Source: a virus (taxonomy: Duplodnaviria; Heunggongvirae; Uroviricota; Caudoviricetes). From it: 24,423 nt of DNA. Positions 6,625 to 10,015 of this stretch are shown here, piece after piece. The notes beneath the pieces are model-generated. The model was not told the origin of the DNA, made no database searches, and worked only from the letters and a program-made list of their open reading frames with translations. The translations under genes were made by a program, and so were the position numbers. Position 1 is the stretch's first letter. Each line of letters begins with the position of its first letter. The stretch spans positions 1 through 24,423 of IMG/VR virus record IMGVR_UViG_2531839474_000007; one strand, 5' to 3'.

Positions 6625-6687
6625 AAGGCATATATTTCATGCAAATCTGATATTTTGCCGATTTTGTACGTGATGGCAAAAGCAAAC

Positions 6688-6716
6688 AAAACCCGCCCAC
6701 AAGCGGGTTTTTTTGT
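6688..6716 (+). terminator. rho-independent terminator (tR'-like) downstream of the Q-like gene
   Basis: AAACCCGC-CCACAA-GCGGGTTT stem-loop followed by a T-run. Confidence 0.75.
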
Positions 6717-6834
6717 GCCACTTATCTCGGATAGACATGGTGAATGCGCTGGTGGAGGAAGCAAGGGTAATTTTTAACCAGGTGATTCTTGAATGCTTGC
6801 AACATTGATTTCGTAACGTTATTATCCTGCGCCC

Positions 6835-6910
6835 GGCCCTTTAGCTCAGTGGTGAGAGCGAGCGACTCATAATCGCCAGGCCGCTGGTTCAAATCCAGCA
6901 AGGGCCACCA
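6835..6910 (+). tRNA. tRNA-Ile2 (anticodon CAU, ileX/ileZ-like; lysidine-type) or tRNA-Met
   Basis: 76-nt cloverleaf folded by hand: acceptor GGCCCTT/AAGGGCC, D arm GCTC..GAGC, anticodon loop CTCATAA, T loop TTCAAAT, 3' CCA encoded; close to E. coli ileX as recalled. Confidence 0.85.
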
Positions 6911-6917
6911 TCACATA

Positions 6918-6994
6918 CCGCCATTAGCTCATCGGGATAGAACGCCAGCCTTCGAAGCTGGTTTCGCGGGGTTCGAGTCTCCGATGGCGGTCCA
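6918..6994 (+). tRNA. tRNA-Arg, anticodon UCG as read
   Basis: 77-nt cloverleaf: acceptor CCGCCAT/ATGGCGG, anticodon stem CCAGC/GCTGG with loop CTTCGAA, T arm CGGGG-TTCGAGT-CTCCG, CCA encoded; one D-stem mismatch. Confidence 0.8.
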
Positions 6995-7007
6995 TTATCG
7001 GTATTCT

Positions 7008-7084
7008 GCGTTTTTAGCTCAGCCGGACAGAGCAATTGCCTTCTAAGCAATCGGTCACTGGTTCGAACCCAGTACAACGCACCA
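7008..7084 (+). tRNA. tRNA-Arg, anticodon UCU (argU-like, reads AGA/AGG)
   Basis: 77-nt cloverleaf: anticodon stem ATTGC/GCAAT with loop CTTCTAA, T arm ACTGG-TTCGAAC-CCAGT, CCA encoded; one acceptor-stem mismatch. Confidence 0.8.
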
Positions 7085-7253
7085 CACTTATTTTCCCTCG
7101 CTCGCTTTTGCGGACCTTTTTTGTATCCGCACCACGCCCGGCGCATACCAACCACAGAGCCTTTCGGGGGGAGCTTATGGAGTGGTCAGTGTGACTTTCT
7201 CTGTGGGCAGATCGCTCCCGGGCGTTGGCTCACCCACCCAAAGGAACGTCACG

Positions 7254-7686
7254 ATGTTTGGTATTTTTGGTAAAAAAAGCCCGCAGAGCGGCAACGGAAA
7301 TTAAAAAGTTTGAAAAACGCGATCTGGCACAGGTGGTGATTAACGCCGCATACCTGGTGGCCTGTGCAGATGGTGAATGTGAGGCTTCCTAGAAAGCGAA
7401 GATCGAACAGGTACTGCGTAATCAGCCTGCGCTGTACGCGTTTACGTCAGAAATTAATGCGATTAGCGCAACCATTATCGGTCAGCTGGATACGAACTTT
7501 AAAACTGGTCGTCGTGCGGCGTTACGTGAGATCGAGGATGTGAAACACGATACGCGTGAAGCGGAAGATGTGCTGGATGTGGCGGTGGCCATTGCGGAGG
7601 CAGACGGCGAAATTGAGCCGGAAGAGCGCAAGGTGCTGGAAGAGATTGCCGGTGTTCTGGGTCTTCGTCTGGAGAATTACCTGTGA
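7254..7686 (+). pseudogene. TerB-like (tellurite-resistance TerB-family) gene inactivated by a frameshift and an in-frame amber codon
   Basis: ATG 7254 with AAGGA 8 nt upstream. The frame stops after 16 codons; the +1 frame entered at the A7 tract (7272..7278) continues through two ADG-x5-E type repeats (ACADGECEAS, AEADGEIEPEERKVLEEIAGVLGL) but holds TAG at 7390..7392 before ending at TGA 7684..7686. Confidence 0.55.
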
Positions 7687-7850
7687 CGGTAAAACTGCGC
7701 CTGACTGTGGCTGCACTCCTGCTGTTTCTGGTGGTGATGGTGGATTTCACCAGCAGAATCATGTCGGTGCTGGCGGATGGGGTGCTGGTCTGCGGCATTA
7801 TGGTATTGCTGTGGCCGGTGATAAAAAGAAACAGCCTGCATAATGCTTGA
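7683..7850 (+). CDS. small hydrophobic protein (about 55 aa) translationally coupled to the TerB-like gene
   Basis: GTG 7683 overlaps the upstream TGA (GTGA); two hydrophobic segments (VAALLLFLVVMV, VLVCGIMVLLWPV); alternative ATG starts at 7737 and 7761; below the ORF-track size cutoff. Confidence 0.3.
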   Translation: MTVKLRLTVAALLLFLVVMVDFTSRIMSVLADGVLVCGIMVLLWPVIKRNSLHNA

Positions 7851-8051
7851 TTTTTTTGTTTGCTGTTTATTAAAAACACTTCTGCATGGTGAATCCCCCT
7901 GTGCGGTGGGGCAATCAGCAAGAAGGAATATGGGGTAATCGCGGATTCAGGTGCTGATACTGAATTCACCGGGAGGCACCCGGCACCATGCTTTGCCACA
8001 AAAGTGTTATTTCTGTTTTTCTCAAACTATCATCGTTATCCCTTTATTTTC

Positions 8052-8078
8052 GGCTGCGCATGGCGCGGCCTTTTTTTT
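8052..8078 (+). terminator. rho-independent terminator upstream of the esterase gene
   Basis: 8-bp stem (GGCTGCGC/GCGCGGCC, one G-U pair) with a 3-nt loop, followed by T8. Confidence 0.6.
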
Positions 8079-8164
8079 ACGACCAGCCACTGGCAGATGG
8101 TCATCCTGTGATTTGATTCCGCTTCCGGCTTTTTAACTCTGTTCCTCTACACGGGAGAAATTCG

Positions 8165-10015
8165 ATGTCGATTAAACATTATGATGTTGTCAGGGCGGCG
8201 TCGCCGTCAGACCTTGCGGAAAAGCTGACACACAAACTGAAAGAGGGCTGGCAGCCATACGGCGGACCGGTTGCCATTACGCCGTACACACTGATGCAGG
8301 CGGTGGCTATTGAAGGAGAGCCACAGGTCGGCCCTTCATCTGAGCCGGATTGGTACTACGTCATCGTACTGGCCGGGCAGTCCAATGCCATGGCTTACGG
8401 TGAAGGGCTTCCGCTGCCGGATTCATACGATGCTCCGGATCCGCGCATTAAACAGCTGGCGCGCCGCAGTACAGTGACGCCGGGCGGGGCTGCCTGCAGA
8501 TATAACGATATTATTCCGGCTGACCACTGTCTGCATGATGTGCAGGATATGAGTACGCTGAATCATCCGAGGGCTGACCTGAGCAAAGGGCAGTACGGCT
8601 GTGTCGGCCAGGGTTTACATATTGCCAAAAAACTGCTCCCGTATATCCCGAATAACGCGGGGATCCTGCTGGTACCATGCTGTCGTGGTGGTTCGGCATT
8701 TACCCAGGGCGCGGAGGGGACATTCAGCGAGTCCACGGGGGCCAGTCAGGATTCGGCACGCTGGGGGGTGGGCAAGCCGTTATATCAGGATCTGATTTCC
8801 CGCACAAAAGCGGCATTGCAGAAAAATCCCAAAAACGTTCTGCTGGCCGTCTGCTGGATGCAGGGTGAGTTTGACATGAGCGCCGCCACCCACGCACAGC
8901 AACCTGCGCTGTTTACAGCCATGCTGACACAGTTTCGTGCTGACCTCTCCGTGTTTAACGCGCAGTGCCATGGTGGCAGCGCTGCAGATGTGCCGTGGAT
9001 TTGTGGTGACACGACGTATTACTGGAAAAATACATACGCTACCCAGTACGACACCGTGTACGGCGGGTATAAAAACAGGGAGAGTGAGGGCGTTTATTTT
9101 GTGCCCTTCATGACAGACGGTAACGGCGTCAATACCGCCACTAACGCGCCGGCAGAAGATCCGGATATTCCGGCATCAGGATATTACGGTGCGGCATCGA
9201 GAACGAATGGAAACCAGGTATCATCAAACCGCCCGACACATTTCAGTTCATGGGCGCGCAGGAGCATTATTCCGGATCGTCTGGCAACCGCTATTCTGAA
9301 CGCAGCCGGGCGCACCTCAGCCTTCATCAGTGGTAAGGCACCGGAAATCAAACCCTCGCCCGGCGGCAACACGCCATCGGGTCCGTCTGCAGATACGTCC
9401 GTTCGCACAATCTCCCTGCTGCCGGCAGCCGGAGAGGCTGCTGCGCAGGGCTGGAGCATTAAGGATGGCGGAATTCAGTTGTCAGATGGTGTATTTAAGA
9501 TCACCAAGCAGAGCAATAAAACCTGGTCCCTGACGCATCCGGTGGATGACGCAATTACCCTGCTGACACAGGGCGGCAGACTGACCTGTAAGTTCCGCCT
9601 GTCAGGCGCACTGACCAACAATCAGTTCGGGCTGGGGATTTATCTGTATACGGATGCTCCCGTTCCTGATGGTGTGGCGATGACGGGTACCGGTAATCCG
9701 TTCCTGATGTCGTACTTCACTCAGACCACTGACGGCAGAGTGAATCTGATGCATCACAGGAAAGCCGGAAACACGAAGCTGGGGGAGTTCGGCGATTACG
9801 GTAACGACTGGCAGACGCTGGAGCTGGTGTTCACCGCCGGCAGTGCCACGGTTACTCCGAAACTGAATGGAGTGGCTGGCCCGGCATTCCAGGTTATAAA
9901 AGACGGTCTGACACTGGGACTGAATGCGCTGACGCTGACGGATGTTACAAAAAATGCAGCGTATGGCGTTGAGATAGAAAGTCTGGTGCTGGAGATAAAT
10001 GCACCGGCAGCATAA
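8165..10015 (+). CDS. nanS-p: prophage NanS-p-type sialate O-acetylesterase (N-terminal DUF1737-like domain plus SGNH/SASA esterase domain)
   Basis: 616 aa; GGAGA Shine-Dalgarno; esterase motif VIVLAGQSNAMAYGEG (GQSN block); downstream of the phage tRNA cluster, as for nanS-p/yjhS homologs of Stx-type prophages. Confidence 0.75.
   Translation: MSIKHYDVVRAASPSDLAEKLTHKLKEGWQPYGGPVAITPYTLMQAVAIEGEPQVGPSSEPDWYYVIVLAGQSNAMAYGEGLPLPDSYDAPDPRIKQLARRSTVTPGGAACRYNDIIPADHCLHDVQDMSTLNHPRADLSKGQYGCVGQGLHIAKKLLPYIPNNAGILLVPCCRGGSAFTQGAEGTFSESTGASQDSARWGVGKPLYQDLISRTKAALQKNPKNVLLAVCWMQGEFDMSAATHAQQPALFTAMLTQFRADLSVFNAQCHGGSAADVPWICGDTTYYWKNTYATQYDTVYGGYKNRESEGVYFVPFMTDGNGVNTATNAPAEDPDIPASGYYGAASRTNGNQVSSNRPTHFSSWARRSIIPDRLATAILNAAGRTSAFISGKAPEIKPSPGGNTPSGPSADTSVRTISLLPAAGEAAAQGWSIKDGGIQLSDGVFKITKQSNKTWSLTHPVDDAITLLTQGGRLTCKFRLSGALTNNQFGLGIYLYTDAPVPDGVAMTGTGNPFLMSYFTQTTDGRVNLMHHRKAGNTKLGEFGDYGNDWQTLELVFTAGSATVTPKLNGVAGPAFQVIKDGLTLGLNALTLTDVTKNAAYGVEIESLVLEINAPAA

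Follow-up and report, generated by a model that had tools for sequence, protein, structure and literature searches.

Does a prophage without Shiga toxin (Stx) genes still possess the position in which Stx-converting phages carry them, and if so, what is found there? The question is raised by IMG/VR virus record IMGVR_UViG_2531839474_000007 (Caudoviricetes), of which positions 1 to 24,423 have been analysed as a whole (24,423 nt, hereafter the window). An earlier note on this DNA had read its late genes as the layout of Stx-converting phages, the toxin slot being occupied by a TerB-like pseudogene and a small membrane open reading frame (ORF). According to the analysis presented here, the locus is the late-operon "moron" region of a lambda-like Escherichia coli prophage where the gene pair tciA-tciB (tciAB) replaces stxAB between homologous flanks and tciA is dead; the probability of this reading can be put at about 0.87.

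The position was defined by blastn comparison with two Stx phages, Stx2a_WGPS6 (AP012539, locus L005) and the Stx1a phage Stx1_14040 (locus L003). On the tRNA side, window positions 6762-7133 correspond to L005 7001-7372 with 91.9% identity. This block covers the ileZ-argN-argO cluster, which is 91-93% identical to that of Stx2 phages, and a further 49 nt, and it stops 44 nt 5′ of stx2A, whose start lies at L005 7416. Between 7133 and 7866, no similarity to L005 is found; window 7866-7990 then aligns with L005 8743-8886, 3′ of stx2B, and beyond this island, part of an STnc100-family small RNA (sRNA) gene, the similarity continues at nanS-p and then at the holin gene. The Stx1a phage likewise has STnc100 and nanS-p after stx1B, as the window has them after tciB, and the window nanS-p shows 96% identity to the yjhS gene of Stx1a phages. 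Because homology ends at 7133 on the tRNA side and resumes at STnc100 (7855), the variable slot extends over approximately 7134-7854. Homology on both flanks, going beyond gene order, supports the view that the cargo interval is the positional equivalent of the stx slot, and the correspondence claimed in the earlier note is thereby borne out at the DNA level.

The toxin genes themselves are absent, as had been stated: tblastn of the A and B subunits of Stx1 and Stx2 against the whole window gave a best E of about 1. Thus, the pair stxA and stxB, which an Stx-converting phage would have between Q and its lysis genes, is missing from the window, and the cargo flanks typical of such phages, ileZ-argN-argO (92% to Stx2a_WGPS6) and nanS-p (96% to Stx1a phages), are retained. 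The slot limits first proposed, 7085-8164, hold only in part. The stretch of about 7134-7854 is indeed variable, while the 3′ third, with the STnc100 sRNA gene and its terminator, is shared with Stx phages and had been overlooked. The terminator reported within the slot does exist (8052-8070 followed by T8), but it belongs to the sRNA flank rather than to the cargo.

The first gene of the slot, tciA, is a member of the TerB family, in agreement with its initial assignment. Even in the window copy, the fragment following the stop codon (7393-7683) matches Pfam TerB (PF05099) with 32.8 bits (cut-off 24.4) and E=9e-8, and the intact homologue from phage JLK-2012 reaches 60.2 bits (E=2.9e-16). Intact TciA comprises 143 aa, falls into PHROG 632 ("tellurite resistance", moron class; E=3.8e-69) and is aligned by phmmer with the nuclear magnetic resonance structure of TerB (PDB 2JXU; E=3.1e-7, residues 15-137 to 21-144); NCBIfam gave only a sub-threshold match to DjlA, a protein with a TerB-like domain. 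Among tciA alleles, the ratio of non-synonymous to synonymous differences (pN/pS, as dN/dS) calculated from a dozen sequences is 0.01-0.14, with pS up to 0.47, and because of these low ratios intact TciA is considered to be under strong purifying selection. An intact ORF encoding the whole domain is not present in the window, and its tciA is, as judged from the sequence, a TerB member by descent, not a functional one.

Both lesions that had been ascribed to the gene are seen when the window is aligned to seven intact alleles. The first is a run of seven A residues (A7) close to the 5′ end, where the closest intact alleles have A6 and more distant ones AAAGAAA; in the window, the conserved ATG at 7254, preceded by AGGA 8 nt upstream, opens a frame of 16 codons that ends at 7302-7304. 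The second is the nonsense mutation GAG to TAG (E46*), which removes 98 of the 143 TciA residues, including the stretch matching Pfam TerB. The TAG lesion is unambiguous. On identical DNA, the prokaryotic genome annotation pipeline (PGAP) names the gene a "tellurite resistance TerB family protein" and marks it as a pseudogene with "internal stop" as the only defect, A7 being avoided by a start at TTG 7258. The tciA leader (7134-7253) was considered as a structured regulatory RNA and rejected, nothing credible being found in Rfam; its divergence from the corresponding leader of phage PPyecE (~83% identity over 7200-7253, estimated by eye) is in line with that of the coding region. A link to anti-phage defence was rejected as well: PADLOC returned one weak match for TciA (E=0.003) and zero for TciB and NanS-p.

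The second gene, tciB, is the hydrophobic 55-codon ORF of the earlier note, and the description given there proved accurate: tciB is intact, its product has the DUF3927 profile, and its GTG start overlaps the TGA stop of tciA (GTGA, 7683-7686), with GGAG 8 nt upstream. TciB is assigned to PHROG 1470 ("TciB-like", moron class; E=1.8e-29, residues 1-54) and to WP_000216649.1 by PGAP. In intact alleles, tciB is predicted to be translationally coupled to tciA, and its own initiation is plausible. The gene is annotated as intact in all 15 examined loci that carry tciA, and phage 434 has tciB without any tciA. Since tciAB stands in place of stx and tciA is dead, the slot contains no toxin and, in the window copy, no working TerB protein.

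The right flank opens with STnc100, which starts 4 nt 3′ of tciB in the window; Rfam places the same sRNA at 8731-8942 in L005, 75 nt after stx2B, and at 4573-4786 in L003, 78 nt after stx1B, and it also follows tciB in JLK-2012 and PPyecE. A distance of 75 nt downstream of stx2 has been published (PMC12370729), and in strain EDL933, 11 STnc100 copies are expressed, one of them confirmed by Northern blotting (PMC5331693). The window copy scores 100.8 bits, compared with 154-191 in Stx phages. The cmscan alignment matches it to positions 1-206 of RF02076 and shows its inner hairpins as well as the long-range helix of the core (GCAUGGUG...CACCAUGC) to be conserved; what it lacks is the model's 3′ terminator hairpin. 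In a six-way alignment, its 3′ tail with the terminator corresponds to that of the PasD-type element of phage 434 (L004 4140-4340), which shares the 5′ end and the terminator with the window STnc100 and has a different core. The window STnc100 therefore looks like a hybrid, with a Stx-phage-type core and the tail and terminator of phage 434 instead of the model terminator. A shared ancestry of STnc100 and PasD has been proposed, and the window copy fits this proposal (bioRxiv 10.64898/2026.05.13.724894). In the window variant, the sRNA probably ends at the terminator of 8052-8078, and a discrete small transcript is only predicted. On the opposite strand, right after STnc100, the anti-sRNA AgvB (RF02702) is found in PPyecE (L006 4954-5015) and in the Stx1a phage (L003 4788-4847); when AgvB and AsxR were sought next to STnc100 with Rfam, no AgvB was detected in the window even at E<=1.

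Table 1. Features of the prophage late region (coordinates refer to the 24,423-nt window).
Feature	Position	Strand	Evidence
DUF968 gene	4517-5566	+	ORF listing and profile scans
RusA gene	5579-5938	+	ORF listing and profile scans
Late antiterminator Q, Q82 type	5929-6624	+	Pfam PF06323 Phage_antiter_Q, 310 bits, E=9.8e-93
Candidate PR′ late promoter, TTGCAA-17-TATATT	6608-6636	+	Promoter scan, 9/12 consensus matches, consensus only
tR′-like intrinsic terminator, stem CCCGC/GCGGG extended by flanking A-U pairs, then T7	6688-6714	+	Terminator scan and folding
tRNA with anticodon CAT, ileZ equivalent (tRNA-Ile2)	6835-6910	+	ARAGORN; Rfam tRNA, 72.5 bits; PGAP tRNA-Ile on identical DNA
tRNA-Arg (TCG), argN equivalent	6918-6994	+	ARAGORN, Rfam, homology to Stx2 phages
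tRNA-Arg (TCT), argO equivalent	7008-7084	+	ARAGORN, Rfam, homology to Stx2 phages
Post-argO segment still common to Stx2 phages, up to the left breakpoint of the variable slot	7085-7133	+	blastn against L005
tciA, TerB-family gene, inactivated	7254-7686	+	Pfam TerB; PHROG 632; PGAP pseudogene "internal stop" on identical DNA
A7 run, one A extra relative to A6 in closest intact alleles	7272-7278	+	Allele alignments
TAG nonsense codon, E46* (ATG numbering)	7390-7392	+	GAG in 10 other alleles sampled
tciB, 55-aa DUF3927 small membrane protein, intact	7683-7850	+	Pfam PF13064, 60.4 bits (cut-off 25), E=1.7e-16
STnc100-family sRNA gene; start of shared right flank	7855-8027	+	Rfam RF02076, 100.8 bits (gathering 47), E=3e-21
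Intrinsic terminator, 8-bp GC-rich stem 8052-8070 and T8	8052-8078	+	Terminator scan; -15.4 kcal/mol
nanS-p, prophage sialate O-acetylesterase, 616 aa	8165-10015	+	Pfam DUF1737, SASA, DUF6645
IS3-family element (IS1203/IS629-like), 1310 bp, AAG target duplication	10025-11334	+	HTH_Tnp_1, rve, ALIL frameshift pseudoknot
Class II (P21-type) holin	11776-11982	+	Pfam PF04971, E=1.9e-32
Endolysin (phage lysozyme)	12670-13203	+	Pfam PF00959, E=7.6e-24
Rz-type spanin	13482-14006	+	Pfam PF03245, E=1.2e-48

Several observations weigh against this interpretation of the locus. The window Q and tR′ have no DNA-level homology to either of the compared Stx phages (blastn), and for this reason the label "Stx-phage-type", given by the earlier note to the late region in general, holds for the tRNA-to-lysis segment only; Q is of the Q82/PF06323 type and close to that of phage 434, and the prophage backbone is a typical lambdoid mosaic, not specifically a Stx-phage one. 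As for tciA, A7 alleles without TAG (L007-L009) are annotated by PGAP as intact, 142 aa long from TTG 7258, and two TAG-free A7 alleles differ from each other by eight synonymous and three non-synonymous changes, which are few substitutions. Expression of such alleles could come from TTG initiation or from slippage at the A run, and the A7 frameshift by itself may not be fully inactivating; given the annotation of the TAG-free A7 alleles as intact, the A insertion alone is a probable, unproven knock-out. Moreover, PR′, Q-dependent read-through, the sRNA ends and the IS polarity discussed below are predicted by analogy with the biology of lambdoid and Stx phages.

The slot is far from rare. At least 22 complete genomes contain the 1080-bp sequence with 100% identity; they belong to isolates from humans, cattle, pig, giant panda, fish and seawater and include O157:H7 and O157:H16. 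Coverage of the sequence reaches at least 80% in 646 genomes. tciA is found in 15% of complete E. coli genomes (805/5426) at a median of 4 places per genome, and the exact 61-mers at TAG and at A7 are present in 521 and 556 E. coli records, respectively, these tciA counts (best place per record, or exact 61-mers) being minimum values for records, which do not give frequencies per copy. The best match to the whole window is E. coli ECO2947 (NZ_CP046259), with 94% coverage at 99.8% identity. What the window slot contains is a module of very wide occurrence, in a decayed copy. That a virulence cargo site has a non-toxin occupant is correct insofar as tciAB takes the place of stx; the unusualness implied in the earlier note does not stand, tciAB at this position being common, annotated and already described.

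It might be supposed that the window descends from a Stx phage that exchanged its stxAB for tciAB by recombination in the shared flanks, so that the locus would be a relic of toxin loss. Indeed, the flanks common to both (the tRNAs plus 49 nt on one side, STnc100 plus nanS-p on the other) would permit cassette exchange, and Zhu et al. raise repeated loss or rearrangement of stx for similar synteny (bioRxiv 10.64898/2026.05.13.724894). However, at least four types of Q or antiterminator protein, as annotated, precede tciAB at this position, the pair is present in 15% of complete E. coli genomes in a median of 4 copies as well as in the deposited phages Evi and JLK-2012, and Q, tR′ and the head genes annotated as lambda-type differ from those of the compared Stx phages. 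An exchange between stx and tciAB may have run in either direction, and an origin by toxin loss is considered unlikely.

The dead allele itself appears to have travelled. The same E46* codon and A7 tract are present in several prophage backbones and hundreds of genomes, with tciB and STnc100 intact. In O157:H7 strain PV15-279 (L018), which has the TAG allele, a deletion has removed the three tRNA genes together with the beginning of the slot, and in strains 155 (L019) and 96_1414P (L020), with the same TAG, the 5′ end of tciA is replaced and the gene lies behind a different antiterminator. These arrangements suggest that the dead tciA allele spreads among co-resident lambdoid prophages by recombination and is still decaying. 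Many of the 521 TAG records appear to be O157:H7-like, with recent common ancestry, and are probably oversampled. It is quite improbable that the loss of tciA is a recurrent, horizontally propagated state rather than random decay, either with TciA counterselected in hosts of the enterohaemorrhagic E. coli type (for example, by interference with the chromosomal ter island) or with poly(A) slippage switching a TerB-type protein of stress response or defence on and off. In the alleles examined, TAG was recorded in at least three different prophage contexts. A promoter-like site, TTGCAA-17-TATTAT, is located at 6797-6825 (+), directly 5′ of ileZ; in L018, the deletion has fused the sequence just past this site with the leader of tciA, the junction lying at a short repeat that contains CCCGG.

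Even less credit can be given to the idea that tciA is no pseudogene at all, translation starting at TTG 7258 or A7 being corrected by transcriptional or ribosomal slippage, with the TAG either read through or separating two functional pieces. The TAG-free A7 alleles are annotated as intact and open over 135 codons; the frame downstream of TAG is open in four distinct sequences (the window, L018, L019 and L020) and the allele is present in 521 records; and PHROG 3920 corresponds to the 48-aa C-terminal fragment. Yet the TAG alleles are only ~1% divergent, too little for an open downstream frame to be informative, and the number of records is affected by the shared ancestry and probable oversampling mentioned above. 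The ATG with AGGA 8 nt upstream is kept in all alleles and would outcompete the TTG 4 nt downstream, and a suppressor tRNA as a rescue for TAG is ruled out within the window, where the anticodons are CAT, TCG and TCT. L019 and L020 combine the same TAG with a lost tciA 5′ end, as expected of a dead allele. The notion that the resemblance to the stx slot reflects a generic lambdoid gene order without true positional homology has a negligible probability, since, even with Q and tR′ that show no DNA-level relationship to their counterparts in the compared Stx phages, it is contradicted by the 92% identity over the tRNA cluster plus 49 nt, by STnc100 right after the cargo in all cases and by the 96% identity of nanS-p.

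If tciAB is a cargo of the late operon in place of stx, its expression would be subject to the late antitermination switch. In a lysogen, transcription from PR′ would halt at tR′, and after induction, RNA polymerase modified by Q would start at PR′ and pass tR′ and later terminators, thus co-transcribing the tRNAs, the cargo, the sRNA, nanS-p and the lysis genes. The same read-through mechanism drives stx expression in Stx phages, and the course predicted here is modelled on the established biology of lambdoid and Stx phages (PMC8065619, PMC6266700). In the window, read-through would yield no TerB protein and at most TciB, the sRNA and the esterase, and in the lysogen any contribution would be limited to the sRNA and perhaps tciB and nanS-p. 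The IS element downstream of nanS-p may lower transcription into the lysis and head genes owing to predicted polarity.

All elements of the order reported initially (Q, tR′, Ile2-Arg-Arg, cargo, nanS-p, lysis genes) were recovered at or near their proposed places by profiles, ARAGORN and the terminator scan. The full order on the + strand is DUF968, RusA, Q, PR′/tR′, three tRNAs, slot, nanS-p, IS3-family element, holin, lysozyme and Rz; the gene order thus stands, and what the first reading had missed is the IS between nanS-p and the lysis genes. For the part farther downstream, the annotation of near-identical RefSeq DNA gives lambda-type head genes. The Q protein belongs to PHROG 304 ("anti-termination protein Q-like") in a profile search, the PGAP product on near-identical RefSeq DNA is "bacteriophage antitermination protein Q", and the Q82-like Q gene of phage 434 is 76% identical to it at the nucleotide level (blastn). 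As expected of a lambdoid Q, the PF06323 match is followed by a promoter-proximal terminator, and antitermination activity is predicted. The position of the candidate promoter, at the end of Q and 5′ of the terminator, fits that of a lambdoid PR′, and such a function is presumed. The tR′-like hairpin has its core at 6692-6707 and T7 at 6708-6714, and the segment 6637-6720 folds with -24.7 kcal/mol (z=-2.4). The interval from PR′ to tR′ may correspond to a short terminated late-promoter transcript from 6640-6714, which would be an analogue of lambda 6S RNA or StxS. Sub-threshold Rfam matches (E=0.03-0.08) to the Salmonella prophage RNAs isrK and isrJ were recorded over the same interval (+).

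nanS-p is known downstream of stx and also from non-Stx prophages (PMC10462455). The window protein combines the N-terminal DUF1737, the catalytic SASA and the lectin-like C-terminal domains characteristic of NanS-p, and matches NanS (PDB 3PT5, E=1e-122) and the C-terminal domain of NanS-p (PDB 6YP6, E=1e-29). The IS element begins 10 nt past the nanS-p stop, in the spacer between esterase and holin, and homology to the Stx1 phage and phage 434 picks up exactly at 11334 (blastn). Self-blast revealed a second IS3-family copy at 1339-2648 (-), 100% identical and inverted, with a GGG target duplication; because each copy has its own 3-bp target duplication, both are considered simple insertions without inversion of the DNA between them. 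The esterase-holin spacer is the site where related prophages reportedly carry the sRNAs PasA and PasC; for 11334-11775, where no Rfam family exists for them, a search made without a PasA/PasC reference sequence gave no match.

Other accessory genes border this region. A sok antitoxin RNA (RF01794, 114 bits) is located at 3365-3539 (+), and since near-identical RefSeq loci annotate hokD there, a hok/sok-type type I toxin-antitoxin module is placed upstream of DUF968-RusA-Q. Just past the lysis cassette, at 14472-14786 (+), there is an ORF for a PerC-family transcriptional activator (PF06069, E=3.8e-44), another accessory gene.

Among the known systems, Stx2a_WGPS6 shares with the window the tRNA cluster with its 49 nt (92%), STnc100 after the cargo and then, likewise in the same order, nanS-p (a homologue with ~69% nucleotide identity) and the P21-type holin (95%); it differs in having stx2A/stx2B where the window has tciA/tciB, Q and tR′ of another family, STnc100 about 75 nt after stx2B rather than 4 nt after tciB, and no counterpart of the IS before the holin. 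The cargo itself has its relatives in JLK-2012 (JQ347801), PPyecE_EH1910 (LC567835) and Evi (LR597642), where the same overlapping tciA-tciB pair (88-92% identity) occupies the equivalent place, with Q or tRNAs on one side and STnc100, nanS-p or holin on the other. Their tciA genes are intact, with an ATG start, A6 or AAAGAAA, and GAG at codon 46; the tRNAs of JLK-2012 are Asn-Thr-Gly, and PPyecE has none. The products are annotated as TciA/TciB in JLK-2012 and as "TciA/TerB-like" in PPyecE. The gene names originate from phages P1, P7 and D6, whose tciA-tciB pair belongs to the same PHROGs 632 and 1470 and is ~67% identical at the nucleotide level along the 3′ half of tciA and into the first part of tciB, but lies in a plasmid-prophage context instead of a lambdoid late operon. 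There, the genes are annotated as tellurite or colicin resistance, or as inhibition of cell division; an experimentally shown function of tciA-tciB was not found in the checks made here.

At the level of the whole slot, O157:H7 strain 493/89 (NZ_CP038412) and ECO2947 are 100% identical over the 1080 bp, annotated as a TerB pseudogene, a DUF3927 protein and a SASA esterase. ECO2947 differs from the window in its IS content, with ISEc8 between esterase and holin and an IS3 element farther downstream. PasD/STnc100 sRNAs have been described directly 5′ of the esterase, as in the window, TerB, RusA and DUF1627 are conserved near PasA/PasC, and synteny of TerB, RusA, esterase and holin around Pas/STnc100 sRNAs has been published (bioRxiv 10.64898/2026.05.13.724894). 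The slot contents are, therefore, already known, being catalogued in RefSeq annotation, in PHROG, Pfam and Rfam families and in the published synteny. Only mildly curious is the wide distribution of one nonsense allele across backbones with tciB kept intact.

For the lambdoid family, these results mean that the stx position is a general exchange point of prophages, located between ileZ-argN-argO and STnc100 plus nanS-p, and that tciAB is its commonest non-toxin occupant, often decayed. The comparison is of use for distinguishing Stx phages from prophages without stx when genomes are surveyed, and otherwise mainly for annotation hygiene. It is also a reminder that "intergenic" DNA beside stx-like slots contains a conserved sRNA.

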